From an uncultured bacterium (lineage in GTDB: Bacteria; Patescibacteriota; Minisyncoccia; UBA6257; UBA9933): a stretch of DNA of 64,000 nucleotides. A program made the position numbers and the translations under genes. Positions 3,438-59,339 of this stretch are shown piece after piece. The DNA lies in contig CAJVXI010000001.1 of the NCBI GenBank assembly GCA_913009635.1, positions 2,915 to 66,914 of the forward strand. Reading direction: 5' to 3'. How positions within the stretch are numbered: position 1 is the first letter of the stretch; each line of letters begins with the position of its first letter. The notes below the pieces were generated by a model. That model ran no database searches. It was not told the DNA's origin and saw only the letters and a list, made by a program, of their open reading frames with translations.

Positions 3438-3572
3438 CTCTCAAAAATGTAAAATTTAAAAATCAAAAATCAAAATGCCAATGTAAAATTTCAAAATGAG
3501 TTAAAAAAACGAAAACAATTTTAACATTTTGATCTGTCATTTTCCATTTTGATATTTACATTTTGAATTTTT
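3438..3572. repeat. Repeat family A copy that fills the pilB-pilC gap.
   Basis: It runs from the pilB stop to the pilC ATG and has an internal imperfect palindrome. Confidence 0.8.
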
Positions 3573-4784
3573 ATGAGATTTCATTACATTGCGTCACAGC
3601 CAAACGGTAAAATAGTTGAAGATGAAATTGATGCCCAGGGTCCGGCTGAAGTTTTGGAATTTTTAGCCAATAAGGGTTTAAAGCCAGTTTCTCTTAAACA
3701 AATTAAGGGTTTTGAGCAGACCATTAAACGGCATATTTTCGGTCAGACAATTACGATAGATGATAAAGTTTTTTTAACAAAGTATTTGGCGTTGATGCTT
3801 AAGGTTGGCACTGATCTTTTTAAGGCAATTAATATTTTAATCGCTGATTTTGATAAGCCGTCAGTTAAAGCGTTATTGATCGAAATTCGTAATTCTTTAG
3901 AAAAGGGACAGCCATTTTATACGACTTTTGCTAAATATCCTAAATTTTTCTCACCGGTTTTCGTAAATTTAATTAAATCAGGTGAAGCGTCCGGGAATTT
4001 AGAACAAATTTTTGAAGATTTAAGCAATTCAGTTCAAAAAGAACAGGAGCTTCGCAATCGGATTAAAGCCGCTTTAACTTATCCAATTATTCTTTTAGTG
4101 GTTTCGACAATGATTCTTGTTCTATTGGTAAGTTTTGCTTTGCCGAGAATCGCGAATATTTTTATGTCCAGCGGTTTTGATCCGCCAACTTTTTCAAAAA
4201 TTGTTTTTGCAGTTGGTTTATTTTTTGGTAAATTTGTTTGGATTATTTTAGGCGTAGGAGCGCTTTTGTTATTTGGAAATTGGTTTTTTATTAGTAAAAC
4301 TTTAATTGGTAAAAGATTTATTCAGCGGTTATTTTCTAAGACACCGGTAGTAAAAACAGTTATAAAACGAATCGCCATTCAGCGTTTTGCCACTACCCTT
4401 GCATCGCTTTTAAAAGCAGGTTTGCCCATAACTGATTCTTTAGAGATTACCGCGCAAGCCGTTGGTTTCGAAGAATTAAAGGATGCTCTTTTAAGAATTT
4501 CTCGAGAGGGAATCATTAAGGGAGCGACCATTGGAGAGGCCTTTAAGCGTGAACCGTTTTTCCCAAAGACAGTTTCTAATTTGGTGGCAATTTCTGAAAA
4601 AGCCGGACATATAGAAAATATTTTAGGCGTTTTAGCCCATTTTTATGAATCAGAGATTGATTCGTCAATTAAGTCAATGGTTTCTTTTCTGGAGCCAGTA
4701 TTACTTTTGGTTATTGGATTTATAATTGGCTTAATAGCTCTTTCTATTATCGTGCCGATTTATCAGTTGGTGGGACAGTTCTAA
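3573..4784 (+). CDS. pilC: Type IV pilus platform protein PilC (GspF family).
   Basis: Two GspF-type repeats with TM helices. It lies next to pilB. Confidence 0.85.
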   Translation: MRFHYIASQPNGKIVEDEIDAQGPAEVLEFLANKGLKPVSLKQIKGFEQTIKRHIFGQTITIDDKVFLTKYLALMLKVGTDLFKAINILIADFDKPSVKALLIEIRNSLEKGQPFYTTFAKYPKFFSPVFVNLIKSGEASGNLEQIFEDLSNSVQKEQELRNRIKAALTYPIILLVVSTMILVLLVSFALPRIANIFMSSGFDPPTFSKIVFAVGLFFGKFVWIILGVGALLLFGNWFFISKTLIGKRFIQRLFSKTPVVKTVIKRIAIQRFATTLASLLKAGLPITDSLEITAQAVGFEELKDALLRISREGIIKGATIGEAFKREPFFPKTVSNLVAISEKAGHIENILGVLAHFYESEIDSSIKSMVSFLEPVLLLVIGFIIGLIALSIIVPIYQLVGQF

Positions 4785-9398: not shown

Positions 9399-9947
9399 AT
9401 GAAATCTTTTCTTTATTCAATTTGGGAGATTATTGAAGTTGTTTTAATAGCTATTATCACAGTAATTGTTGTTAGAAATTTTTTAATCCAGCCATTTTTA
9501 GTTAGTGGCGCGAGTATGGAGCCAAATTTTTCAAATGGAGATTATCTCTTGGTTGACGAGATTACTTATCGTTTTCGTAAGCCGCAGAGAGGAGAAGTTA
9601 TTGTTTTTTATTACCCCGGCGATGAAGTTACATATTATATTAAAAGAATTATAGGTCTTCCAGGCGAACGAATTAACATTAAAAACGGGCAGATTACGAT
9701 TTACAGTAATGATTATTCCAGTGAATTGGTTCTTGAAGAATATTATTTGCCGCTTGATATTAAAACTTCTGGAGATAAAGAAATTGCCATTAGTGATAAT
9801 GAGTATTTTGTTTTAGGAGATAATCGTTATTATAGTTTTGATTCGCGTAGTTGGGGTCCTCTTAATGAAGATGAAATTATTGGTTTAGTGCGTTTGCGCC
9901 TTTGGCCATTTAATAATGTGATGGCATTTGAGAAACCAGTTTATTAA
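9399..9947 (+). CDS. lepB: Signal peptidase I.
   Basis: The boxes 'GASMEPNF', 'YIKRIIGLPGERI' and 'VLGDNRYYSFDSRSWGP' are present. Confidence 0.85.
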   Translation: MKSFLYSIWEIIEVVLIAIITVIVVRNFLIQPFLVSGASMEPNFSNGDYLLVDEITYRFRKPQRGEVIVFYYPGDEVTYYIKRIIGLPGERINIKNGQITIYSNDYSSELVLEEYYLPLDIKTSGDKEIAISDNEYFVLGDNRYYSFDSRSWGPLNEDEIIGLVRLRLWPFNNVMAFEKPVY

Positions 9948-10077
9948 AAATTAAAAATGTAAATATCAAAATGGAAAATGACAATGTAAAATTTCAAAAT
10001 GAGTTAAAAAAACGGAAATAATTTCAATATTTTGATTTGTCATTTTGATTTTTGATTTTTTAATTTTACATTTTATT
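9948..10077. repeat. Repeat family A copy (palindromic 'aatgtaaaatttcaaaatgag...tgtcattttg' element).
   Basis: About 85% identical by eye to 3438-3572. Related copies are at 50571-50663, 54637-54746 and 59230-59339. Confidence 0.8.
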
Positions 10078-13576: not shown

Positions 13577-14815
13577 TTGGGATTTAGTATTATGTACATC
13601 ACTGCCTTAGATATTGGATCAGCTCAAATTAAGACATTGGTAGCTGAAGTTCAGAAGAATGGACAATTAGCTATAATAAATGTTTTTAAAACACCTTCAG
13701 AAGGAATTCGCAAAGGCGAGGTTATTGATATTGAAGACGCTACTCGTTCAATAAATTCTTCTTTAGCAGAAGTAAAACATTTTAATAAATCCGCGCTTAA
13801 AAATATTTTTGTTAATATTGGTGGAAGTAATGTAAAAATTCATAACTCACGTGGAATTATTGCTGTTTCCAGAGCTGATAATGAAATTAGTCAGGATGAT
13901 ATTGATAGAGTTATTAAGGCATCTCAAGCGATTAATCTTTCTCCAAATAGAATGATTCTTCATACTCTTGCTCGTGAGTTTATTATTGATAATATCAGTA
14001 ACATTAAAGAACCGTTAGGAATGATAGGAACTCGTTTAGAGGTAAATACTTTAATTATTGATGCTTTTTCTCCAGCTGTTAAAAATCTTATTAAATGTAT
14101 TGAAACCGCTGGCGGTAATTTGGGCGGTTTAATTTATGGTCCTTTAGCTGCTGCTCGTTCAGTTTTGACAAAGAATCAAAAAATATTAGGCTCAATTTTA
14201 GTGGATATTGGTTTTGGCACTACCGGTATGGCTGTTTATGAAGATAATAAACTTTTGAATGCTTCTGTTTTTCCTGTTGGTACCGGCAATATTACCAATG
14301 ATTTAGCAATTGGATTAAAATGTTCAATTAAAACAGCTGAAAAGGTAAAACTTTCTTTTGGTTCTGCTTTAGCAAGAGAAGTTCCCAGTAAAGAAAAAGT
14401 TGATATGTATGAAATAGACGAAACTATTAAAGCGTCTCCGAGTCGTAAATTTATTTCTGAAATTATTGAAGTTCGTTTGGCTGAGGTTTTTGAATTTATT
14501 AATAACGAGTTAAAATTTATTGGTAAAATGAGACAGTTGCCGGCAGGCATTGTTCTATGCGGCAGTGGCGCTAAAATGCCTGGAATTGCTGAGTTGGCGA
14601 AACGAGAATTAAAACTGCATGTTCAAATTGGTATTCCTGAGACAGATGTTTTAGAATTAACTAATGCCGAATTCAGCAGTCAGATTGAAGATCCGGAATT
14701 TGCTACTGCGGTTGGACTGTTATTGTGGGGCAATGATCAACTTGCCAGGGATAGTAATTGGCTTCCGATAAAAAAGTTTTCAATAATAAATATTTTAAAA
14801 CATTTCAAACCCTAG
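13577..14815 (+). CDS. ftsA: Cell division protein FtsA. The start may be at 13592.
   Basis: 'ALDIGSAQIKTLVAEV' is an actin-fold phosphate-1 motif. The gene is adjacent to ftsZ. Confidence 0.85.
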   Translation: MGFSIMYITALDIGSAQIKTLVAEVQKNGQLAIINVFKTPSEGIRKGEVIDIEDATRSINSSLAEVKHFNKSALKNIFVNIGGSNVKIHNSRGIIAVSRADNEISQDDIDRVIKASQAINLSPNRMILHTLAREFIIDNISNIKEPLGMIGTRLEVNTLIIDAFSPAVKNLIKCIETAGGNLGGLIYGPLAAARSVLTKNQKILGSILVDIGFGTTGMAVYEDNKLLNASVFPVGTGNITNDLAIGLKCSIKTAEKVKLSFGSALAREVPSKEKVDMYEIDETIKASPSRKFISEIIEVRLAEVFEFINNELKFIGKMRQLPAGIVLCGSGAKMPGIAELAKRELKLHVQIGIPETDVLELTNAEFSSQIEDPEFATAVGLLLWGNDQLARDSNWLPIKKFSIINILKHFKP

Positions 14816-24774: not shown

Positions 24775-26214
24775 ATGAGAGAAGGTAAAATCCAAATAAT
24801 TAAATACGCTCCGCCTCCACCGGATTTACCAATCTATGGTCAGGTAGATCCAAATGAAACTTCTTTTTTTGGCAGGACCAATTACGAGGCAGGTTTAGAA
24901 TCAAAAAGATTCATTTTTGGCATTAAAAGACGAGATAGGCGTCGCCATTTTTATGTTGTTGGTAAATCAGGGGTTGGTAAATCAAAACTTTTAGAATTAT
25001 TAATTCGTCAGGACATTACTTATGGACATGGTTTGTGTCTGATGGACCCGCACGGTGATGTTATTGCTAATATTCTTGATTTTATTCCCGAGCATAGAAT
25101 AAAAGACGTAGTTTTAATTGACCCTTCGGATACTCAATGGCCGGTTTCTTTTAATCCATTGATGAATATTACTCCTGAACTGAAGCATCAAGTTACTCAA
25201 GGTTTGATTGAGGTAATGGAAAAACAGTTTGGCGCTAATTGGACTCCACGGTTGGAGCATGTTTTTAGATTTACATGTTTGGCTTTATTGGATTATCCAG
25301 GTGCAACAATGAGAGGGATGATTTTAATGTTAACTGACAGGAATTATCGTCACAAAGTTATTGAATATATTGAAGATGAAATGGTTAAGCGGTTCTGGGC
25401 GATTGAATTCGCTGATTGGTCAGAGAAATTTGATACAGACGCTATTATCCCTTTAGTAAATAAATTAGGACAATTTCTTTCAAATCCTTTACTTCATTAT
25501 ATTTTTGGCCAAAAAGACAATAAAGTTGATATTCAAAAGATAATGAATGAAGGAAAAATTCTTTTAATTAATTTGTCTAAAGGAAAGTTAGGAGAAGAAA
25601 ATTCCAGTTTTTTCGGTTCAATGTTTATTACTAAAATTCATCAGGCAGGCATGGCAAGAGCTGATATATCCGAAGAAGAGCGAAAGGATTTTTATCTGTA
25701 TGTTGATGAGTTTCATAATGTAGTTACTGATACTTTTATCAATGTTATAACTGAAGCGAGAAAATACGGTATTTGCGCAACTTTAGCTCATCAATATCGA
25801 GCCCAGCTTCCTATACAGATTATGGCAACTATTTTGGGTAATGTCGCTAATATTGTTATTTTTAGAGTTGGCGGAGATGATGCCAAGTTTTTTGAGAAAG
25901 AAATGACACCTGTTTTTAAAGATAAAGATATGATTAATCTGGGAATGCAGGAATTTTATATCAAGATGACTATTGACGGTGAAACTCATGATCCTTTTTC
26001 AGCTGAAACTTTAAAAATTCTTTCACCTACGCATCCTTCTTATAAAAATGAAATTATTGAATATAATCACAAAACGTATTGTTTGCCATTAGAAGAAGTA
26101 AAAAGAAAAATTACTGAAGCAGAAGGATTAACTGTACAGCAGCAGTCAAAGGTCGCAGAAACCACTCCTGGCGAGTCTCGTTCTGATGAACGGAAAGAAG
26201 AGCCAATCGTGTAA
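24775..26214 (+). CDS. TraG/TraD/VirD4-like (type IV coupling protein family) P-loop ATPase, soluble form without N-terminal TM helices.
   Basis: Walker A 'VGKSGVGKSKLL', Walker B 'FYLYVDEFHN', then 'EARKYGICATLAHQYRAQL', which resembles the VirD4 'DEF.N...E..R.YG....QS..QL' region. It is a paralogue of 28852-30501. Confidence 0.5.
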   Translation: MREGKIQIIKYAPPPPDLPIYGQVDPNETSFFGRTNYEAGLESKRFIFGIKRRDRRRHFYVVGKSGVGKSKLLELLIRQDITYGHGLCLMDPHGDVIANILDFIPEHRIKDVVLIDPSDTQWPVSFNPLMNITPELKHQVTQGLIEVMEKQFGANWTPRLEHVFRFTCLALLDYPGATMRGMILMLTDRNYRHKVIEYIEDEMVKRFWAIEFADWSEKFDTDAIIPLVNKLGQFLSNPLLHYIFGQKDNKVDIQKIMNEGKILLINLSKGKLGEENSSFFGSMFITKIHQAGMARADISEEERKDFYLYVDEFHNVVTDTFINVITEARKYGICATLAHQYRAQLPIQIMATILGNVANIVIFRVGGDDAKFFEKEMTPVFKDKDMINLGMQEFYIKMTIDGETHDPFSAETLKILSPTHPSYKNEIIEYNHKTYCLPLEEVKRKITEAEGLTVQQQSKVAETTPGESRSDERKEEPIV

Positions 26215-28851: not shown

Positions 28852-30501
28852 TTATCCTTCCAACGCTTTCTTAATACTTTCTTTTAGTCCCTCAATATCT
28901 GGGGATTTTTTTTCAGATGGTTCTTTTTTATATTGCCTTTCTTGTTGAGTCGGTTCTTGCGTTTTTGGCAATTCTTTTAAAGAGATAAATTTTTTTGGTT
29001 TGTTCTGATTTTGCTGAGGAGTTTCTTCTTTTTTAGCATTTTTTTCTTCTACGGTTTTCAGAATTGAAGTTTGTCTTTTTTGCGGTTCAAATTCTATGCC
29101 TATATCTCTTAAACTTTCAGCGTATTTAAATCTTGGCTCGGCTTCTTTTCGTGAAAATCTTTTTTTATCTTTATCTGGGAATTTACCTCTGGACATTGAT
29201 ATTCTAGAGCCCATAAATCCGCTCCATTGATTAATGTCCGCCTCTACTTTTTCTCGTGGCTGAGAATAACGCTCTCTTGATATTTTAATTACTTTTTCTT
29301 TATTATCGCTATGAGTAGCCATTGCAAACGGCGGTAAAGTAGAGGCAGAAAAAGGACGACTGGTTATTCCGTCAACCATTAATTTAAGATAGATATTATA
29401 GTTTGGCAGATTAATTATGTCTTGAGCATTAAATTCCGGCTCAAATTCTTTTTCAAGAAATTCCGCATCAGCTGCTCCGACTCTAAAAACGAGCATTGTG
29501 CCGACATTGCCAAAAATAGCATCTCTAACCTTAGTTGACGTTTCGGTTAATAATTGGCCAACGTATTGGTGGGCAATAGTAATGTTAAGCCGATATTTCC
29601 TGGCTTCTGAAAGAATGCCGGCAAATGACTCTGTAACAAAGTTTTGGAATTCATCGACATATAAGTAAAAATCTTTTCTTTCTGTTTCCTGAATTCTTAC
29701 TCTTTCCATTGCCGCTAATTGAATTTTAGTAATAAGCATTGCTCCTAAAAGCGCGGAATTATCTTCGCCGATTCTTCCTTTTGACACGTTAATAAGCAGA
29801 ATTTTTTCTTCATTCATTATTTTTTGGATATTAATAGTGCTTTTGGTTTGTCCTACCACGTTTCTAATAAGAGGCGTTGATAAAAATTGGCCTACTTTAT
29901 TTTGAATAGGCACAATAGCTTCATTTCTGAATTGGTCTCGCCAGCCCTCATATTCGTGAATCCAAAATGATTTAACAATTGGGTCTTTGATATTAGCGAC
30001 TATTTGTTGACGGTAATCTTTATCAACTAAAATTTTAGGAACACCCAAGAGAGTAGTACCTGGAGTGTCAAGAAGAGCAAGTATGCAATTGCTTAAAATA
30101 TATTCCATTCGCGCTGACCAAACTCCAGCCCAAATTTTAGTAAAAATTCCCATTAAATCCGAGACAACCAAATGTTTATATTTAGGGTCAGGAACTTCTA
30201 AAATATTAAAACCAATAGGATAATCCATATCAGCCGGATTAAAATAAATAACATCATTAATCCGGTTTTCAGGTATTTTATCAATAATACTTTCAACAAA
30301 TTCACCATGCGGGTCAACAATACAGATACCTTTGCCGTTCATAACGTCTTGGATGGCTAAATTAGCCAATAGAACACTTTTTCCGGTTCCGGTTTTTCCG
30401 ATGACGTATATATGCTGCCTGCGGTCAGCTTGTTTGATGCCAAAAGTTTTTTCTTGATTCCTAAAGTTTGTTTTAGCGAATAGAGTTATCTGATTCGTCA
30501 T
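28852..30501 (-). CDS. TraG/TraD/VirD4-like P-loop ATPase, paralogue of 24775-26214, with a K/E-rich C-terminal tail.
   Basis: 'HIYVIGKTGTGKSVLL', 'FYLYVDEFQNF' and 'EARKYRLNITIAHQYVGQL'. Roughly 45% identical by eye to the + strand copy. Confidence 0.5.
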   Translation of the reverse strand: MTNQITLFAKTNFRNQEKTFGIKQADRRQHIYVIGKTGTGKSVLLANLAIQDVMNGKGICIVDPHGEFVESIIDKIPENRINDVIYFNPADMDYPIGFNILEVPDPKYKHLVVSDLMGIFTKIWAGVWSARMEYILSNCILALLDTPGTTLLGVPKILVDKDYRQQIVANIKDPIVKSFWIHEYEGWRDQFRNEAIVPIQNKVGQFLSTPLIRNVVGQTKSTINIQKIMNEEKILLINVSKGRIGEDNSALLGAMLITKIQLAAMERVRIQETERKDFYLYVDEFQNFVTESFAGILSEARKYRLNITIAHQYVGQLLTETSTKVRDAIFGNVGTMLVFRVGAADAEFLEKEFEPEFNAQDIINLPNYNIYLKLMVDGITSRPFSASTLPPFAMATHSDNKEKVIKISRERYSQPREKVEADINQWSGFMGSRISMSRGKFPDKDKKRFSRKEAEPRFKYAESLRDIGIEFEPQKRQTSILKTVEEKNAKKEETPQQNQNKPKKFISLKELPKTQEPTQQERQYKKEPSEKKSPDIEGLKESIKKALEG

Positions 30502-30564
30502 ATTGGCATAATTATACCATAAATTTAGTTGTTTACAATTAACGGGAAAATGGCTATATTATAA

Positions 30565-30675
30565 AGCGTGATATCAATATACGAATGCGTACTAATGATA
30601 CGAATAAATACTAATTCGTATCCATTAGTATAATTAGCATGAATTAGTATATTAGCATTACATTAAGCGAAACGT
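30565..30675. repeat. Repeat family C copy, short form.
   Basis: It ends 'cattaagcgaaacgtATG' at efp. Confidence 0.8.
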
Positions 30676-31248
30676 ATGTTGTCTTATACCGATTTAAAAT
30701 CAGGTGTTTATATAGTGGTTGATTCACAGCCTTATTTAGTGGTGGAGTCAGAGTTTGTGAGAATGCAGCAAAGAAAGCCAGTAATGAAAACGAAAATTAA
30801 GAATTTAATAACTGGCAAAACAGCAGAGAGGTCATTTCAGCCAAGTGACAATATTGAAGAAGCTGAACTTGAAAAGATGAAAGTAATTTTCATTTACGAG
30901 AGCCGCGGAGAATACTGGTTTAGCGAGCTAAACAATCCAAAGAATAGATTTTTATTAAAAGAAGAAGAAATTGGCGAATTAGCCAAGTTTTTAAAGCCAA
31001 ATTTGGAAATTACAGCATTAAAATTCAAAGACAAAATTATTAACATTGAATTGCCAATTAAGGTTGACTATAAAGTAGTTGAAGCGCCGCCTGCCATTAA
31101 GGGTGATACTGCGCAGGGCGGAACTAAAACCGCGGTTATTGAAACTGGTGTTAAAATTACTGTTCCGCTTTTTATTCAAGAAGAAGATATAATTCGTATT
31201 AATACTCAAACTGGTGAGTATGCGGAGAGAGTAGAGAAGGGATCGTAG
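30676..31248 (+). CDS. efp: Elongation factor P.
   Basis: The N-terminal KOW-like domain has 'KPGKG'-region analogues and the three-domain length is correct. Confidence 0.85.
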   Translation: MLSYTDLKSGVYIVVDSQPYLVVESEFVRMQQRKPVMKTKIKNLITGKTAERSFQPSDNIEEAELEKMKVIFIYESRGEYWFSELNNPKNRFLLKEEEIGELAKFLKPNLEITALKFKDKIINIELPIKVDYKVVEAPPAIKGDTAQGGTKTAVIETGVKITVPLFIQEEDIIRINTQTGEYAERVEKGS

Positions 31249-31470
31249 AAAATCTTTTCTTGCCAGCCAAGCTAAGTAAAAATCTTTTCTCGTTCGTAGT
31301 GCTACACCAAATGAAAATCTTACTTCGCTCATAACTAGAAAATACCACCCTGCTACGCGGGTACCCGGTATTTTCTCTATTCGCTCAGAGATTTTCTATT
31401 CGGCTCCGCAATACTCTCTGTGAAAAGATTTTTGCTTAGTTAGTTAACGGGCTGGCTACAAAAAGATTTT
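31249..31470. repeat. MITE-like or structured element, second copy, with termini 'AAAATCTTTTCTTGCCAGCC ... GGCTGGCTACAAAAAGATTTT'.
   Basis: The termini match 8545-8792. It has the nested inverted repeat 'gctaagtaaaaatcttttc ... gaaaagatttttgcttagtt'. Confidence 0.6.
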
Positions 31471-31502
31471 CTACTAGTCTTAATTGAGAAAAATAAGAAA
31501 AT

Positions 31503-31530
31503 AAAAAAGCCGGCTTTAGAGGTAGCCGGC
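31503..31530 (-). terminator. Rho-independent terminator-like hairpin on the minus strand (gccggc..gccggc followed by a T-run on the - strand).
   Basis: On the + strand it reads 'aaaaaagccggctttagaggtagccggc'. Confidence 0.4.
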
Positions 31531-31800
31531 AACCTTTAATTTGTGGTGCTTACGCATTTCTTCTTCGTTCGAAGCACCAATTAACGAAGAATATCTCTGT
31601 CTAGTATACTCGCACGGCCGAGAAACGCCATTGTGCGATAATCTATATCTTTTGTATTGGATAACTCGCTGAGCGATTATTCAAGCAATTTCAGTGTACT
31701 ATTAATAGTATACACATATTAAAACATTTGTCAATAGTGCGCCAAAACATCTCATTTTTAGCCCAAATAAATCCCACACTTTTCATTCGAGAGGTGCGGG

Positions 31801-31840
31801 ATAAACGGCTCACACGGCGTGTGAGCCGTTTATTTTCTAA
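31801..31840 (+). terminator. Perfect hairpin 'aaacggctcacacggcgtgtgagccgttt' followed by a T-run. An identical hairpin is at 42080-42112.
   Basis: A 12-bp GC-containing stem is followed by 'attttc'. No + strand CDS lies upstream within 550 bp. Confidence 0.55.
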
Positions 31841-31980
31841 ATTTTCAATTTATCATAATTTAACGTAATCAAATTACGTTAAATTATTTAATACAAAGCG
31901 TCATTTGAATGACACTTTATTTATTGGTTAAGTTTGATAATTTGAGAAAAAAAATTTCTGATGATATAGTTTAGTTAATT

Positions 31981-33219
31981 ATGAAAGCAAAAGATAAAAA
32001 AATCGTATTCGTAGCGCTATCAGGCGGCGTTGATTCAAGTGTTGCGGCTTTATTATTAAAAAAACAGGGCTATTATGTAGTTGGTGTTTTTATGCGTTGT
32101 TGGAGAGATGAAAGCCCCGACGCTTCGGTCGGGGCAAGCTGTATGGAAAAAGATGCTGAAGATGCCAGAAAGGTGGCGGAAAAATTGGAAATTCCTTTTT
32201 ATGTTTGGGATTTTGAAAAAGAGTATAAGAAAAGAGTGGTTGATTATATGGTTAATGGTTATAAAAAAGGCATCACTCCTAATCCTGATGTAATGTGCAA
32301 TAAAGAAATCAAGTTTGGTTTGTTTTTGGAAAAAGCGCTGAAGATGGGAGCGGATTATGTGGCAACGGGACACTATGTCCGGCTTTACAGCGTTGTAAAT
32401 GTTCAAAATGTTGTAGATGTTGTAAATGAAAAACAATTACAACAAGCGAAGCGATCCAACAAGCGAAGCGATACAGCATTACAACTTTTTGAGGCTAAGG
32501 ACAAGAATAAAGACCAATCTTATTTTCTTTGGACCTTAACGCAAAAACAATTACAGCATTGCCTTTTTCCTATTGGTGATTATTTGAAGTCCGAAGTTCG
32601 GAAAATCGCTAAAAAAGCTGATTTATTAACAGCTGAGAAAAAGGATTCTCAGGGTATTTGTTTTTTGGGCAAAGTAACACTTGATGATTTTTTGGGTAAA
32701 TATATTCCTAAAAAGAAAGGGGATATTATTAATATTTCAGGGGAAAAAATCGGCGAACACAAAGGCGCTTATTTTTATACTATTGGCCAGCGGCGCGGAC
32801 TTGGAATTGGCGGCCGCCCAATAAAATTGGGCGAGTCTCGTCCCAAAGGGACGGGAGGCGCACCTTATTATGTCGTTGAAAAAGACGTTAAGAAAAACAT
32901 TATTAAAGTTGCCGAAGGAAAAAGCGAAGCGCTTTATAAAAAAGAAATTGAATTATCGGATGTTAATTTTATCAATCCTATAATTCATAATTCAAAATTC
33001 ATAATTCCAGTGTTGGCTCGGGTGCGTTATAGGCAGCCTTTAATAAAAGCCAAATTAGTAATTAGTAATCAGGAATTAGTAAATAGGAAAAACAAAAAGT
33101 CCCTAGTTACTAGTTACTATTTACTATTTACTGAGCCCATTAAATTCATCGCTCCTGGCCAGTCAGCAGTGTTTTATAGTTCAAAAGGTGAAATGTTGGG
33201 CGGAGGTGTGATAAAATAA
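31981..33219 (+). CDS. mnmA: tRNA-specific 2-thiouridylase MnmA with small repeat insertions.
   Basis: PP-loop 'VALSGGVDSSV' and the region 'CNKEIKFGLFLEKA'. In-frame repeats are at 32108-32135, 32441-32473 and 33095-33135. Confidence 0.85.
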   Translation: MKAKDKKIVFVALSGGVDSSVAALLLKKQGYYVVGVFMRCWRDESPDASVGASCMEKDAEDARKVAEKLEIPFYVWDFEKEYKKRVVDYMVNGYKKGITPNPDVMCNKEIKFGLFLEKALKMGADYVATGHYVRLYSVVNVQNVVDVVNEKQLQQAKRSNKRSDTALQLFEAKDKNKDQSYFLWTLTQKQLQHCLFPIGDYLKSEVRKIAKKADLLTAEKKDSQGICFLGKVTLDDFLGKYIPKKKGDIINISGEKIGEHKGAYFYTIGQRRGLGIGGRPIKLGESRPKGTGGAPYYVVEKDVKKNIIKVAEGKSEALYKKEIELSDVNFINPIIHNSKFIIPVLARVRYRQPLIKAKLVISNQELVNRKNKKSLVTSYYLLFTEPIKFIAPGQSAVFYSSKGEMLGGGVIK

Positions 33220-33223
33220 TATT

Positions 33224-33760
33224 ATGATTATTATTTTTACGGGAAACGGAAAAGGTAAAACAACTGCAGCATTGGGGCAGGCGATTCGTGCTTTGGGGCA
33301 GGAGAAGAAAGTTTTGATTATTCAGTTTATAAAAAATATTTCTAGCGGCGAACATAAATTTTTTTCCTCTTTCCTCTTTCCTCTTTCCTCTTTTAGAATC
33401 ATTAAAGGAGGTAAAGGGTTTGTAGGAATTTTAGGCGACAAGCTTCCATTTTCCGAACATAAAAAAGCCGCGCAAAAAATATTAAAATTAGCAGCCCAAA
33501 AAATTAATCCGCCAGCTGGCGGAAAAAAATACGATTTGATTGTTTTAGACGAAATAAACGTGGCTGTAAATTTGAAATTGTTAAGCGCTAAAAAAGTATT
33601 GGATATTTTAAAAAATTTTCCTAAAGACAAAGACATAATTTTAACTGGCCGTAGCGCGCCAAAAAGTTTTATAAAAATAGCTGATTTAGTGACTGAAATG
33701 AAAGAAGTTAAGCACCCGTTTAAAAAAGGCGTGAGGGCAAAAAAAGGAATTGAATTTTAA
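33224..33760 (+). CDS. Cob(I)yrinic acid a,c-diamide / cob(I)alamin adenosyltransferase (CobA/CobO/BtuR family) with an in-frame (cctcttt)n insertion.
   Basis: P-loop 'IIFTGNGKGKTTAALG' and 'LIVLDEI'. The insertion at 33359-33394 'tcctctttcctctttcctctttcctctttt' encodes 'FSSFLFPLSSF'. Confidence 0.7.
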   Translation: MIIIFTGNGKGKTTAALGQAIRALGQEKKVLIIQFIKNISSGEHKFFSSFLFPLSSFRIIKGGKGFVGILGDKLPFSEHKKAAQKILKLAAQKINPPAGGKKYDLIVLDEINVAVNLKLLSAKKVLDILKNFPKDKDIILTGRSAPKSFIKIADLVTEMKEVKHPFKKGVRAKKGIEF

Positions 33761-33782: not shown

Positions 33783-35252
33783 ATGCGCATATATGATATT
33801 GCTTTTTATGTAGTTGTTTTCTTTTTGCTTGGAATATTGGCAGCGAGTTTAAAAATAGATTTTATAATTATTGTATTGGCTGCTGTTTTGGTGGCAGCCA
33901 TATTTTTATTTTCCACCTATTTTCAATCTTACGAGGTTCAACCTCGTAAGATTGAGAGAAAGCTTTTTTGGTTTGCTGGCTTGTCTTTATTTATTATTGT
34001 CGGCGCTCTCTATTATTTTGTGGATGATTATCGTTCCAGAAATATCAATATTACTTTTGATCAGAAAATAAGTTTTGAGGGGATAGTGACAAGAAATCCT
34101 GCGAGAGGCAATCAACAAAAATTAACAATTGAACTTCAACTGCCTTATTCTGGAAGAGTTTTGGTAAAACTTAAAAATTATCCGAGTTTTAATTATGGAG
34201 ATTTAATAAGTTTTGAAGGACAAATCAAAAAACCAGAAAAGGGCTCATATGCCAATTATTTAGCCAAGGATAAAATTTTCGGTACCATCAGTTATCCAAA
34301 AACTAATTTTATTAGTAGTGGTCACGGTTCAAAAATTAAATCAACACTTTTTTCTTTGAAAGAAAGAACAGTCAGTAATTTTCAGAAGGTTTTACCCGCG
34401 GAAAACGCCGCTTTTTTATCCGGAATTACTTTAGGTGAACGAGCCGAATTTTCCAAAGAATTCAAGGAAGCAATGAGTAAAAGCGGTACTACTCATCTGG
34501 TGGCGCTTTCAGGATACAATATTACTATTTTAGTGGTTGCTATCGCTTATATTTTGAGTTCTTTTGTATCACGCCGTTTAGTTTTTTGGTTAACGCTTCT
34601 TATAATAATTGGTTTTGTAATAATGACAGGTGCCGAGGCCTCAGTAGTGCGAGCAGCTGTAATGGGTGGAATTATTCTGTTAGCAAAGCGTGCTAACCGA
34701 CTTTATAGTTTTCGCAATGCTATTGCTATCGCTGGTTTTTTAATGGTTTTGGAAAATCCAAAAGTTTTGAGTTTTGATATTGGTTTTCAGCTCTCTTTTA
34801 TGGCTTTATTGGGTATAGTTTATTTGCGGCCGGCTATTCAAAAATTCTTTAAATTTAGCGAAAAGCCAGGATTTCTTTTATGGAAAGAAAATTTTTTAAC
34901 TACTTTCTCAGCTCAGTTATTTGTTTTGCCGCTGCTTGTTTTGTATTTTGGCAATTTTTCTCCAATATCTTTATTGTCCAATATTTTAATTCTTAGCGTT
35001 ATTCCCTTAACAATGACTTTGGGTTTTATTATCGGGTTCTTGGGATTTATTCATTATTATTTTTCCCTGATTTTTGGATGGCTCACCAACTTACTTTTAT
35101 CTTATGAGACATTTGTAATTAAGTTTTTGGGAGAGTTGAATATTTTACAAATTAATTCATTAAGTGTTCCTTTGGTAATTACTTATTATTTTATTTTAAT
35201 CGTTTTTATTTTGTATGCTCGCCGCCTTCCGAAGCCGCGCCAAAATTTTTAA
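33783..35252 (+). CDS. comEC: ComEC/Rec2 competence (DNA internalisation) channel domain protein.
   Basis: DUF4131-like N-terminal domain plus the competence-domain motif 'GTTHLVALSGYNITIL'. It has multiple TM helices. Confidence 0.8.
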   Translation: MRIYDIAFYVVVFFLLGILAASLKIDFIIIVLAAVLVAAIFLFSTYFQSYEVQPRKIERKLFWFAGLSLFIIVGALYYFVDDYRSRNINITFDQKISFEGIVTRNPARGNQQKLTIELQLPYSGRVLVKLKNYPSFNYGDLISFEGQIKKPEKGSYANYLAKDKIFGTISYPKTNFISSGHGSKIKSTLFSLKERTVSNFQKVLPAENAAFLSGITLGERAEFSKEFKEAMSKSGTTHLVALSGYNITILVVAIAYILSSFVSRRLVFWLTLLIIIGFVIMTGAEASVVRAAVMGGIILLAKRANRLYSFRNAIAIAGFLMVLENPKVLSFDIGFQLSFMALLGIVYLRPAIQKFFKFSEKPGFLLWKENFLTTFSAQLFVLPLLVLYFGNFSPISLLSNILILSVIPLTMTLGFIIGFLGFIHYYFSLIFGWLTNLLLSYETFVIKFLGELNILQINSLSVPLVITYYFILIVFILYARRLPKPRQNF

Positions 35253-35416
35253 AACATAATTAGTTAATGTATATAGCAATGTATGTTATGATTTGATTTT
35301 AACATATCAATCAAATGACACTATGTCATTTGATTGACATATTGCTATGGTTGATAATAAAATATAAATAGAATTAAGATGAAATTAAAATTAGAAGCTA
35401 AAGATAAAAAATAAAA

Positions 35417-35803
35417 ATGGTTAATGTTAATAAAAAATATTTAGATAAAGAATTTAAGAAATCTATTTGGTATGCTTTTGTTAGCGAGCTTAAAAAAGCG
35501 AAAACCGAAAAAGAGATAAAGAAAATAATTGGCAAAATTATTACTCTTTCAGAGATGACGATGATTGAGAAACGATTAGGAATTTTAGCTTTACTTAAAA
35601 AAGGGTTTAATCAAAGAGAGATAGGAAGAATTCTTGATGCTGTGCCGGGTACGGTTAGATTTGTTAAAAGAGGATTAGATAGAACTTCGCGTAATTTACG
35701 GCCACATACACCATGGCCAAGCAAGAAAAAACGTCCAGTTTCAAATTCAAAATTTCCAGCTTATACAGGAAAAGGAAGATGGCGATTTTTGGATAATTAT
35801 TAA
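35417..35803 (+). CDS. TrpR-like YerC/YecD family DNA-binding protein.
   Basis: 'LSEMTMIEKRLGILALLKKGFNQREIGRILDAVPGTVRFVKRGL' matches the YerC/YecD HTH. Confidence 0.6.
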   Translation: MVNVNKKYLDKEFKKSIWYAFVSELKKAKTEKEIKKIIGKIITLSEMTMIEKRLGILALLKKGFNQREIGRILDAVPGTVRFVKRGLDRTSRNLRPHTPWPSKKKRPVSNSKFPAYTGKGRWRFLDNY

Positions 35804-36012
35804 ATTTTTAGCCAAGAGTTTATTATTTTATAGGATGTGTTTTTTATGGGTATGTTTGTGTAAATATGTTGGTTAATTAATTTAAATGTGTCATTCGAAT
35901 GACACACTGAATTATTTTTTACATCAATTTATGTTAATTTTTACAATTATATTATTATATTAAGCTTATATATTATTATATTAACTTACAGTATATTGAT
36001 TAATTTACAATA

Positions 36013-36864
36013 ATGAAAATTGATAATTGGGTTATTTTGTTGGTTTTGTTTTTAATTCTTTTTGATGTTTTTGTTTGGAAGCAGGTTGTTTTTGACAGTC
36101 CGAATGAAAATCTGGAAGTTTATTTCTTGGAAGTTGGACAAGGCGACAGTGAATTGGTTTTTTTGCCGGGCGGGGTCAAAATCCTGATTGACGGAGGTCC
36201 TAATAGCAAAATTCTTGATGAATTATCGTCAATTTTAAGGCCAACTGACCGCTATATTGATTTAGCGGTTCTTTCTCATCCGGAGTTAGATCATTTTGGC
36301 GGTTTGATAGATGTTTTAAAAAGATATCAAATTGGCGCTTTTATTTTTAACGGTCGACGCGGCACAGCTCCAGCTTTCCATGATTTAGAGAAAATCATAA
36401 AAGAAAATAACATCGCAGCCGTTGTTCTTGGCGAAGGAGACGGCATTAAATATATTGAAAATCAGTTTAGTATTCTATCTCCATCAGAGGAATTTTTAAG
36501 CAGTTATGAATTAAATGACACGACTTTAGTAATGAAGTTTGAGAATGAAAGCGTTAAAATTTTATTTACCGGAGATATTGATAAGAAAATTGAATATTAT
36601 TTAATTGAAAAATACGACTTAAATGTTGATATTCTTAAGGTCGCTCATCATGGCTCAAGATTTTCTTCAAGTGAGGGGTTTATAAAAGAAACAAGCCCGA
36701 AAGTATCAGTTATTGAGGTTGGTAAGAATTCTTATGGTCATCCAACAAAGTATGTTTTAAATAAATTAGCTTCAATTGGTTCCCAGATTTTTCGTACTGA
36801 CAAAAACGGAACTGTGAAATTAGTAATAGACGCAGAAAATATAAGTATTTTTAATAAATATTAA
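36013..36864 (+). CDS. ComEC-type metallo-beta-lactamase domain protein. This is the C-terminal ComEC domain encoded as a separate gene.
   Basis: 'VYFLEVGQGDSELVFLPGGVKILIDGG', 'SHPELDHFGGL', 'LFTGDID' and 'KVAHHGSRFSS'. Confidence 0.75.
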   Translation: MKIDNWVILLVLFLILFDVFVWKQVVFDSPNENLEVYFLEVGQGDSELVFLPGGVKILIDGGPNSKILDELSSILRPTDRYIDLAVLSHPELDHFGGLIDVLKRYQIGAFIFNGRRGTAPAFHDLEKIIKENNIAAVVLGEGDGIKYIENQFSILSPSEEFLSSYELNDTTLVMKFENESVKILFTGDIDKKIEYYLIEKYDLNVDILKVAHHGSRFSSSEGFIKETSPKVSVIEVGKNSYGHPTKYVLNKLASIGSQIFRTDKNGTVKLVIDAENISIFNKY

Positions 36865-36892
36865 TCTATGGACATTCGATGTCCTTAAATTA

Positions 36893-36989: not shown

Positions 36990-37142
36990 ATGAATACGAA
37001 TGAAAGAACGAAGTCGTTAATACCAGCATTAATCGTTGTTGCGGTTTGTTTGACAGTGGCTTTTATTGGAATGGTATCTGGCCGTGAAGTGTTAACCATA
37101 TCAGCTTTAGTTGGAGCATTGATGTCTTTGATATGGGCATAG
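36990..37142 (+). CDS. Unannotated 50-aa hydrophobic peptide (MNTNERTKSLIPALIVVAVCLTVAFIGMVSGREVLTISALVGALMSLIWA). It is below the 60-aa cut-off of the ORF track.
   Basis: It has its own promoter and a purine-rich 'agagggacaggag' stretch before the ATG. It predicts two TM helices. Confidence 0.3.
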   Translation: MNTNERTKSLIPALIVVAVCLTVAFIGMVSGREVLTISALVGALMSLIWA

Positions 37143-42077: not shown

Positions 42078-42118
42078 AAATAAACGGCTCACACGGCGTG
42101 TGAGCCGTTTATTGTGGG
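42078..42118 (+). terminator. Hairpin 'aaacggctcacacggcgtgtgagccgttt' plus 'attgtgggtaattttt'. It is identical to the hairpin at 31801-31840.
   Basis: It sits immediately 3' of the CDS that ends at 42076. Confidence 0.5.
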
Positions 42119-49946: not shown

Positions 49947-50570
49947 ATGGCGTTTATATTAGGTAAAAAACTGAATATGTCTCAGATTTGGAAAGACGAT
50001 AAAGTGATTCCTGTTACGGCTGTTAAGGCCGGACCAATAACTATAACTCAAATTAGAATAGAAGAAAAAGATGGTTATGAAGCAATGCAAGTTGGATTTG
50101 ACGCGACAAAAAAGAAATTAAATAAGCCGATGAAAGGACATTTAAAAGATTTAGGGAATTTCAGATATCTAAAAGAATTTAAAAGTGAACAGGAGAAAAA
50201 GTATAAAGTAGGTGATATTCTGGATGTTAGTCAGTTTCAAGAAGGTGATAAAGTAAAAGTTAGCGGTTTAAATAAAGGCAGAGGATTTCAAGGGGTAGTC
50301 AAGCGACATGGTTTTCATGGTGGACCCAAGAGTCATGGCCAAAAAGATCGTTTGCGGGCGCCGGGCTCAATTGGTTCTACTGATCCGCAAAGAGTAATAC
50401 CAGGTAAGAAAATGGCCGGTCATATGGGTCAAGAAAGAATAGCGATAAAAAATTTGAAAATAGTTAATATTGATAAAGAGAACAACATTTTAATGATTAA
50501 AGGCGCGGTGCCTGGAATGAGAGGGACACTTTTAGAAATTCAAAATGTAAAAATTAAAAATTCAAAATGA
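49947..50570 (+). CDS. rplC: 50S ribosomal protein L3.
   Basis: The L3 pattern is present ('GKKLNMSQIW', 'KGRGFQGVVKRHGF'). Confidence 0.95.
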   Translation: MAFILGKKLNMSQIWKDDKVIPVTAVKAGPITITQIRIEEKDGYEAMQVGFDATKKKLNKPMKGHLKDLGNFRYLKEFKSEQEKKYKVGDILDVSQFQEGDKVKVSGLNKGRGFQGVVKRHGFHGGPKSHGQKDRLRAPGSIGSTDPQRVIPGKKMAGHMGQERIAIKNLKIVNIDKENNILMIKGAVPGMRGTLLEIQNVKIKNSK

Positions 50571-50663
50571 CAAATCAAAATGTTAAAATTGTTTCCGTTC
50601 GTTTTAATCCATTTTGAAATTTTACACTGTCATTTTCCATTTTGATATTTACATTTTACATTT
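50571..50663. repeat. Repeat family A copy that fills the rplC-rplD gap.
   Basis: '...aatgttaaaattgtttccgttcgttttaat...cactgtcattttccattttgatatttacattttacatttATG'. Confidence 0.8.
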
Positions 50664-51332
50664 ATGAACGTTGATGTATTTGATAAACAAAACAATAAGG
50701 TAGGCAAGGTTGAGTTGCCAGACAGGATATTTGCCATAAAGTGGAATGCTGATTTAGTTCATCATGCTTTGCAGGCGCAAATTGCTAATTCCAGACAGAA
50801 TTTGGCGCATGCAAAAACTCGCGCTGAAATTCGTGGAGGTGGACGTAAACCATGGCGTCAGAAAGGAACTGGGAGAGCTAGGCATGGTTCAATACGTTCG
50901 CCAATTTGGATTGGCGGAGGAGCGACCCATGGTCCGTTGAAAGAAAAAATATTTGAGAAGAAAGTAAATAAAAAAATGAGACGGTTGGCGATTTTTAGCG
51001 CACTTTCCAAAAAATTAAAAGATGGAGAACTAAAAGTTATTGATTCGTTGAAATTAACCGATTTTAAAACAAAGGAATTATTTCAAGTATTAAAAAGTGT
51101 TTTAAGTTCACAACCAAACGTTATTTTGATTTCATCCTTGGATACTAAAAATATTCATCAAGCAATTTCCAATATTAAAAAAGTAGATGCAATTAGTTCA
51201 CGATCATTAAATGTTTATGATTTGTTAAAATATAAAAATATTATTTTAGAGAAAGATGCAATTAAAGAAATAGAGGAACATTATAAAGGGCTTGGTATAA
51301 ATTTTGGAGCCAAAGGCGAACAAAATTTATGA
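50664..51332 (+). CDS. rplD: 50S ribosomal protein L4.
   Basis: Position in the operon and L4 pattern. Confidence 0.9.
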   Translation: MNVDVFDKQNNKVGKVELPDRIFAIKWNADLVHHALQAQIANSRQNLAHAKTRAEIRGGGRKPWRQKGTGRARHGSIRSPIWIGGGATHGPLKEKIFEKKVNKKMRRLAIFSALSKKLKDGELKVIDSLKLTDFKTKELFQVLKSVLSSQPNVILISSLDTKNIHQAISNIKKVDAISSRSLNVYDLLKYKNIILEKDAIKEIEEHYKGLGINFGAKGEQNL

Positions 51333-53952: not shown

Positions 53953-54636
53953 TTGGCGCAGAAAATTAAACCAAATTCATTTAGATTAGGGATAATTAGA
54001 GATTGGGATGCGCGTTGGTTCCCTAAAAAAACTAATTATAAATCTTCTTTAGAAGAGGATGTTTTGTTAAGAGAAATAATTCGTGAAAAAATCGGTAAAG
54101 CTGGTATTGATAGAATTATTATAGAGAGAACTGGAAATAGTTGTAAAATTTTTATTAAAGCTGCCAGACCTGGATTAATTATCGGACGGGGGGGAAAGGG
54201 AATTGAAGAATTGACTAAATTATTAGAAAGCAAATTAAGTGAATTAAGAAAGAATAGAAAATTTACTGAATTGATTTCTTTGAGTTTAAATATAGAGGAG
54301 TTAAAACGTTCAGAGATTTCAGCTTCAGTGGTTGCGCAAAATATTGCCTGGGATTTAGAAAAAAGATTGCCATTTCGTCGGATGATTAAAAGATCTTTAG
54401 ATCAAATTATTCAAAATAAAGACGTTAAAGGCGCGAAGATTGAAGTTTCTGGCAGATTGAATGGAGCAGAAATTGCTCGTAGAGAACATTTAAATAAAGG
54501 AGAAATGCCTCTTCAGAATCTTAGGGCCAATATTGACTATGGAGAAGCTACTGCTTTTACTACTTTCGGAACTGTCGGAGTGAAAATATGGATATATAAA
54601 GGAGAAGTGTTCGCCGATAAAATCGGCTCAAATTAA
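53953..54636 (+). CDS. rpsC: 30S ribosomal protein S3. The likely start is TTG at 53953, and the ATG at 53932 lies in the palindromic repeat.
   Basis: '(L)AQKIKPNSFRLGIIRDWDARWF' aligns with the E. coli '[23 protein letters not shown]'. Confidence 0.9.
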   Translation: MAQKIKPNSFRLGIIRDWDARWFPKKTNYKSSLEEDVLLREIIREKIGKAGIDRIIIERTGNSCKIFIKAARPGLIIGRGGKGIEELTKLLESKLSELRKNRKFTELISLSLNIEELKRSEISASVVAQNIAWDLEKRLPFRRMIKRSLDQIIQNKDVKGAKIEVSGRLNGAEIARREHLNKGEMPLQNLRANIDYGEATAFTTFGTVGVKIWIYKGEVFADKIGSN

Positions 54637-54746
54637 AAAATCAAAAATCAAAATAACAAATCAAAATTTCAAAATGGTTTAAATTAAAAATTTAACATTT
54701 TACACTGTCATTTTCCATTTTGATATTTATATTTTACATTTTTAAC
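54637..54746. repeat. Repeat family A copy that fills the rpsC-rplP gap.
   Basis: About 95% identical to 59230-59339. Confidence 0.85.
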
Positions 54747-55157
54747 ATGTTAATTCCAAAAAAAGTAAAACATCGCAAATGGCATAAGGGACGTTCTAGG
54801 AAACGGCAAGTTGAAACTAGAGGGATTACTCTAAGTTTTGGCGCTTTTGGATTACAAGCATTGGAAAGCGCGTGGATTAATTCAAGACAAATAGAGGCCT
54901 CTAGAAGAACGATTACTCACTTTACTAAAAGAGGAGGAAAAGTTTGGATAAGAATTTTCCCCGATAAACCAGTAACTAAGAAACCACCAGAAGTAACTTT
55001 AGGCGGCGGTAAAGGGGCAGTAGATCATTATGTGTTCCCAGTGAAACCCGGCAGGATATTATTTGAAATTGATGGAGTAGATGAAGAGATGGCAAAGGAG
55101 GCATTACGGAGAGCTGGACATAAATTGCCAATTAAAACTAGAGTCATATCTAAATAG
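54747..55157 (+). CDS. rplP: 50S ribosomal protein L16. The ORF track opens at 54720 inside the repeat.
   Basis: '[16 protein letters not shown]'. Confidence 0.95.
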
Positions 55158-58779: not shown

Positions 58780-59229
58780 ATGAGAGAATTAAAACCTAAA
58801 AGTGAATTTAAGGATAAGGTATTAGATTTGCGTCGAGTGACGCGTGTTGTTGCTGGCGGTAAGCGTTTTCGTTTTAGAGCAACAGTGATAATTGGAAATG
58901 AAAAAGGTAAGGTTGGAGTAGGTGTTGCTAAGGGGCTAGATGTAGCTCAAGCAGTTAATAAAGCTAAAACTAATGCTAAGAAAAAAATAATTATTATTAA
59001 TCTTAAAAATAAAACTATTGCGCATGAGGTTGAAGCAAAGTATAGCGCTGCTAAAGTAATGATTAAGCCGGCTAAAATTGGACACGGTCTTAAGGCAGGA
59101 GGCGCTGCAAGAGTAGTATTGCTTTTAGCCGGCGTTAGAGACGCTACTGCAAAGTGTTTAGGAGGAACTAAAAATAAATTAACTAATGCTTTGGCGACGA
59201 TAGAAGCGTTGAAAAAATTAAAAAATTAA
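58780..59229 (+). CDS. rpsE: 30S ribosomal protein S5.
   Basis: 'RVTRVVAGGKRFRFRA'. Confidence 0.95.
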   Translation: MRELKPKSEFKDKVLDLRRVTRVVAGGKRFRFRATVIIGNEKGKVGVGVAKGLDVAQAVNKAKTNAKKKIIIINLKNKTIAHEVEAKYSAAKVMIKPAKIGHGLKAGGAARVVLLLAGVRDATAKCLGGTKNKLTNALATIEALKKLKN

Positions 59230-59339
59230 AAATCAAAAATCAAAATAACAAATCAAAATTTCAAAATGGTTTAAATTAAAAATTTTAACATTTTACACTG
59301 TCATTTTATATTTTGATATTTACATTTTACATTTTTAAC
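59230..59339. repeat. Repeat family A copy that fills the rpsE-rplO gap, where rpmD (L30) normally sits.
   Basis: It ends 'ttacatttttaacATG'. Confidence 0.85.

Follow-up and report, generated by a model that had tools for sequence, protein, structure and literature searches.

A TrpR-family gene with predicted palindromic operators between the two ComEC genes of a Wolfebacteria lineage

ComEC is nearly universal in the candidate phyla radiation (CPR, or Patescibacteria), a group with only a handful of transcription factors, in which we know of no study of how DNA uptake or competence is controlled. In Saccharibacteria it mediates natural transformation (PMC10633639). ComEC/Rec2 of the Bacillus subtilis type carries DUF4131, Competence and Lactamase_B domains on one chain. 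Proteins without Lactamase_B (the 'DC' domain profile) are common in bacteria (PMC6299819), and the fusion of ComEC to the metallo-beta-lactamase (MBL) domain has been described as 'essentially absent in CPR' (PMC6744442). On the regulatory side, HisR (YerC/YecD, TIGR02531), the histidine repressor of Firmicutes, is a small TrpR-family repressor with lineage-specific palindromes. HisR and TrpR both recognize 20-bp palindromes, arranged as GNACT-N8 in the case of TrpR, and regulators of the HisR/TrpR type are frequently autoregulated (PMC9413887). We found no literature linking ComEC with a protein of the Trp-repressor family. Here we describe a locus at which the two meet. In a 64,000-nucleotide stretch of contig CAJVXI010000001.1 (assembly GCA_913009635.1; G+C content 33%; hereafter the window), which the protein names in the sources place in Candidatus Wolfebacteria, within the CPR, a gene for a TrpR-family protein stands between separate open reading frames (ORFs) for the channel half (comEC_N) and the MBL, or nuclease, half (comEC_C, here also the MBL gene) of ComEC, and palindromic sites lie in the gaps on both sides of it.

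The best explanation of this layout, to which we assign a probability of about 0.75, is that the TrpR-family protein is a regulator, probably a repressor, which binds the palindrome GTGTC-N8-GACAC and controls its own gene together with that of the ComEC nuclease. The repeated unit in the window is a 16-bp core, TGTCA-N6-TGACA, which is mostly extended to the 18-bp GTGTC-N8-GACAC with AAA/TTT flanks (Table 1). When one mismatch is allowed, the core is found five times in the window for 0.99 expected matches, and GTCATTNNAATGAC is found three times for 0.20 expected; the fifth core match, at 30835, falls inside efp and is probably due to chance. Site scans covered the window and the loci fetched from relatives. 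A 24-bp weight matrix trained on the sites of three related loci only (L011, L013 and L015), with no window locus included, recovers exactly four sites in the window, all of them intergenic and scoring 19.8 to 32.3 bits, with nothing else above 8 bits; the best of 100 simulated windows reached 14.1 bits. Within the 64 kb the sites are thus confined to the locus, as in a local regulon.

The presence of palindromes near mnmA and around the regulator gene had been reported in a first-pass annotation of this DNA and stands, with corrected positions: GCGTCATTTGAATGACAC is at 31898-31915 rather than 31897-31914, and GTGTCATTCGAATGACAC at 35888-35905 rather than 35873-35894. What had been read there as an inverted arrangement at 35312-35336 turns out to be two adjacent, mirror-image 16-bp sites, TATCAATCAAATGACA and TGTCATTTGATTGACA, that is, a tandem pair.

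Comparison with related loci (denoted here by L numbers) ties the sites to the protein. The order comEC_N, TrpR-like gene, MBL gene recurs with regulators that are 78% (L015/L025), 72% (L013), 67% (L011/L022/L021), 51% (L023) and 40% (L014) identical to that of the window, and also in L032, whose regulator has diverged further still. TGTCA-N6-TGACA occupies the same two intergenic gaps in L011, L013 and L015 and occurs nowhere else in the 6-12 kb of these loci. The gap between regulator and MBL gene holds a site in all of the comEC-context lineages that have a regulator (7/7). In six regulator-less loci (L029-L031 and L033-L035; about 46 kb), five of which keep comEC_N beside the MBL gene, no site reached 12 bits, and neither did any window-type site in the loci with diverged regulators. 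These last carry other perfect palindromes, placed upstream of the regulator and again before the MBL gene: TGTCCAGTTAACTGGACA in L014, GATACAGTTAACTGTATC in L023 and GGTCTAACGCGTTAGACC in L032. Family members in unrelated contexts (L016-L020, L026-L028) are each bracketed on both sides by palindromes of their own (GCTACGTTTAAACGTAGC in L016, GCTTCAGTTAACTGAAGC in L017/L026, GATACGTTTAAACGTATC in L018/L027, GCTTTGTTTAAACAAAGC in L019 and GGTGCAGTTGACTGCACC in L020), and L024 is the sole family locus without a clear palindrome assignment.

Site and protein also change together. Where recognition helices are the same or similar, the regulators have a common operator type, PGTVRFVKRGL going with GTGTC and [ASG]TVSFV[RK][NQ]GF with GATAC. 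In sequence geometry all operator types fit 5-bp half-sites 8 bp apart, to which binding is predicted, and three of the types have AGTTAACT at their centre, in agreement with the trp operator consensus nGTnnACn. Because the sites track the presence, absence and divergence of the protein, we predict them to be operators of the TrpR-like regulator; very probably, they tie the expression of parts of ComEC to it.

Simpler identities for the palindromes were considered and rejected. DNA-uptake sequences do not fit four copies per 64 kb, all of them local, and simple restriction-modification sites (centres TTCGAA, GTTAAC, GTTTAAAC and ACGCGT) do not fit a conservation that spans 18-24 bp. Intrinsic terminators were discarded because single palindromes fold weakly and lack T-runs. 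Between outer TGTCA and TGACA that stay fixed, the central 6 bp show uncompensated changes (ATCAAA, TTTGAT, TTAATT), the two upstream sites of L011 cannot pair with each other, and an Rfam search of the spacers returned nothing at gathering score and only chance-level matches at E <= 1; for these reasons, together with the missing T-runs, we do not regard the sites as RNA elements.

The protein itself is a Trp_repressor (PF01371) at 35.5 bits, for a gathering cut-off of 27, and the profile of its family alignment matches S. aureus 3kor and E. coli TrpR. AlphaFold2 models it with a core pLDDT of about 87 and helices at residues 11-27, 31-41, 44-62, 66-73 and 77-87, the helix-turn-helix lying at about residues 66-87. 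The 37 best PDB matches of this model in Foldseek are all TrpR or TrpR-like, with target-normalised TM-scores of 0.54-0.70. In the family alignment, the N-terminal arm MVNVNKKYLD hardly varies, and a basic linker leads to a C-terminal FPxYxGKGRWRFL motif, the basic tail measuring roughly 40 residues. The regulator scores below the equivalog cut-offs of both TrpR (TIGR01321; 31.2 bits versus 67.25) and HisR/YerC-YecD (TIGR02531; 18.2 bits versus 42.2), and the gene neighbourhoods examined contain no trp/aro and no his genes. A word-index protein search returned 12 homologue clusters, all 12 with PF01371, and under-estimated the size of the family, for which an exhaustive profile search found at least 243 clusters (50% identity, E <= 1e-10). 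By its sequence, the regulator is a member of a sizeable, uncharacterised TrpR subfamily outside the TrpR and HisR/YerC equivalogs. The YerC/YecD label of the first-pass annotation is lost at this point, whereas its suggestion that the palindromes are candidate operators linking DNA uptake to a small regulator is very probably right, given the conserved positions and the co-variation.

The genes on either side of the regulator are the two parts of ComEC. The 489-aa ORF holds DUF4131 (PF13567, 9.9e-14) and, at residues 215-481, the Competence domain (PF03772, 2.2e-51), and the MBL domain is on a separate ORF 760 nt downstream of comEC_N. On the NCBIfam profile ComEC_Rec2 (TIGR00361) the first ORF covers positions 108-407 and the 283-aa MBL ORF positions 424-663. 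Together the two ORFs are, on this profile, one collinear ComEC cut at a domain boundary; with 87 and 117 bits for a cut-off of 190, neither reaches the full-length equivalog. The MBL half aligns to the solved ComEC MBL domains 9ic4 (7e-29) and 30bt (residues 530-788) and keeps VGQGD, H-x-E-x-D-H and HHGS, its SHPELDH being aligned with tHPDaDH, and on account of these motifs and alignments it looks functional.

The ORF coordinates of comEC_N, the TrpR-like gene and the MBL gene are exactly those given earlier, and the earlier description of separate channel and MBL ORFs with a TrpR-like gene between them is upheld by the ORFs, the Pfam domains and the TIGR00361 tiling. Its interpretation, in which the regulator gene splits ComEC, is not, and neither is its worry that a frameshift or assembly error might lie behind the split. 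On 12 contigs the three genes stand in this order, and about nine samples or assemblies account for the 10 places shown. An artefact was rejected because these sources are independent, because the start of the MBL ORF, MKIDNW, is conserved among relatives and because split genes are the norm of the clade. Every one of the 120 best MBL homologues stands alone, as a protein of 274-299 aa and in most cases of 283. In L030, L031, L033 and L034, comEC_N is followed directly by the MBL gene, with an overlap or a gap of at most 48 nt, and in the closest relative (L029, MBL 85% identical) the gap holds an unrelated 596-aa ORF. The split of ComEC is, as these sequences have it, normal in Wolfebacteria and not caused by the regulator, and the split itself is not news. 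Since relatives carry nothing, another gene or the regulator there, we read the comEC_N/MBL junction as a variable spot between pre-existing genes, where the regulator cassette is present in some lineages. The 596-aa ORF of L029 (1607-3397) is Cys-rich with many CxxC pairs, is preceded by a hairpin with 17-bp arms and has no match in Pfam or PHROG.

Promoter-like sequences suggest how control might be exerted. The right half of O2 is the -35 hexamer of the regulator's promoter-like site, an overlap conserved in L011, L013 and L015, where the equivalent promoter-like sites match the consensus at 11-12 of 12 positions. In the four window-type lineages (4/4), the proximal operator embeds the -35 (TTGACA or TTGACG), which is followed by an 18-nt spacer and the -10. 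We propose that the protein is a dimeric TrpR-fold DNA-binding regulator recognizing the 18-bp palindrome, and that a dimer on O2 would occlude RNA polymerase at the -35 and switch off its own transcription (negative autoregulation). The mirror-image O1-O2 arrangement, which is found in the window, L013 and L015, suggests two dimers side by side. Occupancy of O3 would block either the MBL promoter or transcription that reads through from the regulator gene. In the window lineage, O(mnmA) is located about 25 nt upstream of the promoter-like -35 of mnmA, cobO and comEC_N, a tightly packed run that starts with mnmA and has intergenic gaps of 4 and 22 nt. Through this site, this operon, and with it the channel half, would also come under the regulator, so that both ComEC halves would obey one protein, presumably answering a small-molecule ligand. 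The ancestor would already have had ComEC as two adjacent genes, with the regulator and its operators at the junction, and would have passed them on to descendants some of which lost or replaced them.

Several observations weigh against this account or limit its reach. The distance from the operator to the MBL start ranges from 10 to 124 nt among relatives, so that there is no single conserved promoter geometry at this gene. The mnmA-upstream site is found in the window lineage only. The scan covers 64 kb, and the regulon beyond the window may be larger. Elsewhere, the genes downstream of family members (tRNA-Leu, smpB, folD) are unrelated to DNA uptake, so the family is not one of dedicated competence regulators. 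The equivalent of TrpR Arg54 is kept, but TrpR Arg84, which contacts ligand and DNA, is replaced by an invariant Phe, and because of this the ligand of the regulator cannot be inferred by homology. Finally, the fold, site statistics, site conservation, presence/absence matching, co-variation and promoter overlap are direct results, whereas we infer the direction of control from position only, and we infer actual binding, ligand control and physiological meaning as well.

The question of direction gives rise to the alternative that survives best, although we consider it unlikely: the TrpR-like protein could activate the two ComEC operons, as a competence activator, and repress only itself. The window sites before the MBL gene and mnmA do lie upstream of the best promoter hexamers, with centres at about -58 and -70 respectively, which is the position of a class I activator and fits activation too, and a combination of activation with autorepression is common among transcription factors. 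However, the MBL-proximal site ends 10 nt (L032), 17 nt (L013) and 30 nt (L011) before the start codon. As this leaves no room for a downstream promoter, we favour repression by occlusion or as a roadblock. The promoter calls are consensus matches only, and the characterised members of the TrpR family considered here, TrpR and HisR, are ligand-dependent repressors (PMC9413887).

We hold it to be less likely still that the palindrome-gene-palindrome unit is mobile or selfish, a small cassette whose palindromes are recombination or transposition ends rather than operators and which has repeatedly entered the comEC_N/MBL junction and other places, such as the neighbourhood of tRNA-Leu. The family members examined are indeed bracketed by identical palindromes whatever their neighbours, several adjoin tRNA-Leu(TAG), a classic integration target, and L016 has 8 copies in 1.5 kb. 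The spread is also patchy: L029 has another gene at the junction, and a neighbour-joining tree of the MBL proteins intermixes loci with and without the regulator, with bootstrap values (33-69%) too weak to tell loss from gain. However, there is neither a recombinase or transposase nor a target-site duplication, and the only domain of the protein is a TrpR-fold helix-turn-helix. A phage or mobile origin was rejected in view of the absence of relatives among 2.9 million viral contigs and of any meaningful match to a PHROG family, and the 64 kb contain no dispersed copies. The proximal operator is moreover integrated with a conserved -35/-10 promoter. The identity ranks of the regulators (78, 72, 67 and 40%) parallel those of the flanking MBL proteins (69, 65, 61 and 60%), as fits vertical descent with losses. 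Judged on these sequences, ancestral presence of the regulator with repeated loss is favoured over cassette mobility.

The least probable alternative, in which the palindromes act as RNA (terminators, stabilising hairpins or attenuators) and the nearness of the TrpR-like gene is incidental, can draw on the richness of the window in repeated intergenic hairpin families and duplicated terminators and on the tandem pair (35307-35337), which folds to a 14-bp hairpin of -16.9 kcal/mol (z = -5) directly after comEC_N, but we find it very improbable, given that sites taken singly yield weak folds (-7 to -9 kcal/mol, z of about -2.3 to -2.6) with no T-run adjacent, that their outer bases are conserved in sequence and their central changes uncompensated, that they vanish without the regulator and change when it diverges, and that they overlap the -35 hexamer and hence lie upstream of the transcript on which they would act.

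Table 1. Genes, predicted operators and promoter-like sites of the locus (positions in the window; bits are scores of the 24-bp weight matrix)
Feature	Coordinates	Strand	Description
O(mnmA), predicted operator, AAAGCGTCATTTGAATGACACTTT	31895..31918	.	29.8 bits, second best; one mismatch to TGTCA-N6-TGACA
mnmA promoter-like site	31942..31970	+	TTGAGA-17-TATAGT, TG upstream; consensus scan 10/12, predicted only
mnmA	31981..33219	+	tRNA 2-thiouridylase; Pfam tRNA_Me_trans, 2.2e-79
cobO	33224..33760	+	CobA/CobO/BtuR family; Pfam PF02572, 3.8e-56; synteny kept in relatives
comEC_N	33783..35252	+	OB-fold DUF4131 and transmembrane Competence channel domain (Pfam); 489 aa
O1, predicted distal tandem operator	35301..35324	.	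19.8 bits; core TATCAATCAAATGACA at 35305-35320
O2, predicted proximal tandem operator	35320..35343	.	27.1 bits; core TGTCATTTGATTGACA at 35324-35339
TrpR-like gene promoter-like site	35334..35363	+	TTGACA-18-TAAAAT; consensus scan 11/12
TrpR-family regulator gene	35417..35803	+	Pfam PF01371; 128 aa
O3, predicted operator, regulator/MBL gap	35885..35908	.	32.3 bits, best in the window; perfect palindrome GTGTCATTCGAATGACAC at 35888-35905
MBL promoter-like site	35918..35947	+	TTTACA-18-TACAAT; 10/12, weak; position not conserved among relatives
comEC_C	36013..36864	+	N-terminal transmembrane helix and ComEC-type metallo-beta-lactamase (nuclease) domain; Lactamase_B; 283 aa

Further features were observed in and around these genes. 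Within the coding sequence of comEC_N, a perfect 33-nt palindrome with 16-bp arms, TCAATCTTACGAGGTTCAACCTCGTAAGATTGA (33923-33955), codes for the greater part of a loop insertion of 8-10 aa, QSYEVQPRKI, which L029 and most other relatives lack; L031 and L034 bear unrelated insertions at the same loop position. The terminator scan also flags this palindrome as terminator-like, and to judge from its sequence it looks like an in-frame insertion of a palindromic element. Directly 3' of the MBL stop codon there is a hairpin, GGACATTCGATGTCC (36866-36880), followed by a TTGACA-17-TATAAA promoter match that was read by eye and is absent from the list of the promoter scan, and then by a 50-aa conserved membrane-protein ORF (36990-37142), which several assemblies annotate as a gene.

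O(mnmA) is located in a non-coding spacer of 730 nt between efp and mnmA (31249-31980), and the other syntenic loci examined have no such spacer. The spacer also holds a long inverted repeat (31248-31290 with 31422-31471; GAAAATCTTTTC motif), a terminator at 31801-31833 that is duplicated at 42079-42113, and a 33-nt palindrome at 31855-31887. On its minus strand, a promoter-like sequence (31734-31707) and a terminator-like one (31530-31509) could bound a small RNA; the spacer has no Rfam match. Just upstream of the locus are two TraG/VirD4-like coupling-protein genes (TrwB_AAD_bind, DUF87; 24775-26214 and 28852-30501) in opposite orientations, which share a 135-nt inverted repeat (I1) that is 76% complementary. 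Similar genes also flank the locus in L013 and L031.

Families of repeated long hairpin-forming elements crowd the intergenic spacers of the window, for example AAAATGTAAATATCAAAATGGAAAATGACA...TGTCATTTTCC, AGCCACTAGCCACTAGTGATTAGGGTTT and AGAGTAATCACTAATTAGCGAATA. Copies of hairpin elements lie at 3443-3575, 9944-10074, 50536-50672, 54621-54749 and 59207-59339. Further copies are found at 12325, 20461, 47557, 51927 and 55586, at 11902, 24570, 30511-30718, 56051 and 58195, and at 14814, 16115, 26213 and 44744. The heptamer TGTCATT occurs 22 times in the window for 9.7 expected, an excess that is explained in part by these unrelated families. Pairs of AATGACA and TGTCATT (at about 9977/10038 and 50566/50628) were considered as tRNA acceptor stems; this was rejected, as there are no tRNAs in the window and the pairs belong to an unrelated repeat family of the intergenic spacers.

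Elsewhere in the regulator family, the TrpR-like gene and its palindromes adjoin tRNA-Leu(TAG) in a second clade (L016, L017, L018, L026 and L027). In L017 and L018, parA/parB-like ORFs, recognized from their N-terminal sequences only, come next, within about 1.5 kb, and in L019 the TrpR-like gene stands before smpB and tmRNA. L016 has eight copies of GCTACGTTTAAACGTAGC (0-2 mismatches) between 4394 and 5848, a stretch of about 1.5 kb that surrounds the TrpR-like gene and is mostly non-coding. On either side of the gene the copies follow one another at intervals of some 90-190 bp, in an iteron-like array whose sequence suggests a larger nucleoprotein complex.

A broader and more tentative reading, which we regard as possible but doubtful, extends the regulatory account from this locus to the family. 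The TrpR subfamily, which is apparently confined to the CPR (at least 243 clusters, with the N-terminal arm and the GKGRWRFL tail), would move about as a complete operator-gene-operator module and bring any gene downstream of it under ligand-dependent control. This module would gate the ComEC nuclease in one clade of Wolfebacteria, and the channel too in the lineage of the window, and in some lineages, such as L016, the protein might build a larger nucleoprotein array. If this is true, metabolite sensing would switch DNA uptake in nucleotide-auxotrophic, host-dependent bacteria, and the ligand, if found, would reveal the signal by which they turn on the nuclease half of their DNA-uptake machinery. 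The locus also lends itself to inexpensive tests, as it pairs a 128-aa protein with a defined 18-bp site, and the natural change of operator specificity in at least nine lineages makes the family a system for studying how the recognition code evolves in the TrpR fold. Overall, we see here a solid, testable prediction and not a new principle.

Set against the known systems, the closest is TrpR of E. coli. The regulator has its fold (Foldseek top matches 1trr, 1tro and 1zt9, probability 1.00), its PF01371 membership and its Arg54 equivalent. TrpR operators are palindromes of 18-20 bp with 5-bp half-sites 8 bp apart (PMC9413887), and so are the window sites, to which binding is predicted. Tandem sites and autoregulation, known for TrpR (PMC9413887; the title of PDB 1trr reads 'tandem binding'), are proposed for the regulator likewise. 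It differs from TrpR in the Phe at R84, in the extra N-terminal arm MVNVNKKY and the tail ending in GKGRWRFL, in the sequence of the half-site, and in having ComEC genes rather than trp/aro genes as neighbours in the window. HisR likewise appears among the sequence and fold matches of the regulator (PDB 3kor and 3g1c), but it is shorter (under 100 aa versus 128 aa), its motif cacTTTAnnnnnnTAAAgtg (cacTTTA-N6-TAAAgtg) is unlike the window sites, and no his or transporter genes are nearby. The locus encodes all three domains of ComEC/Rec2 of the B. subtilis type, in collinear order on the profile; here they are divided between two polypeptides, and the MBL half is anchored by an N-terminal transmembrane helix of its own. 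As a TrpR-family regulator that probably represses, with palindromic operators and autoregulation, the system is of a familiar kind. What is new is the subfamily with its extra N- and C-terminal motifs, the operator-gene-operator packaging, the ComEC nuclease as the predicted target, joined in this lineage by the channel, and, as an element added to the ComEC/Rec2 plan, a regulator gene with its predicted operators in the junction between the two halves.

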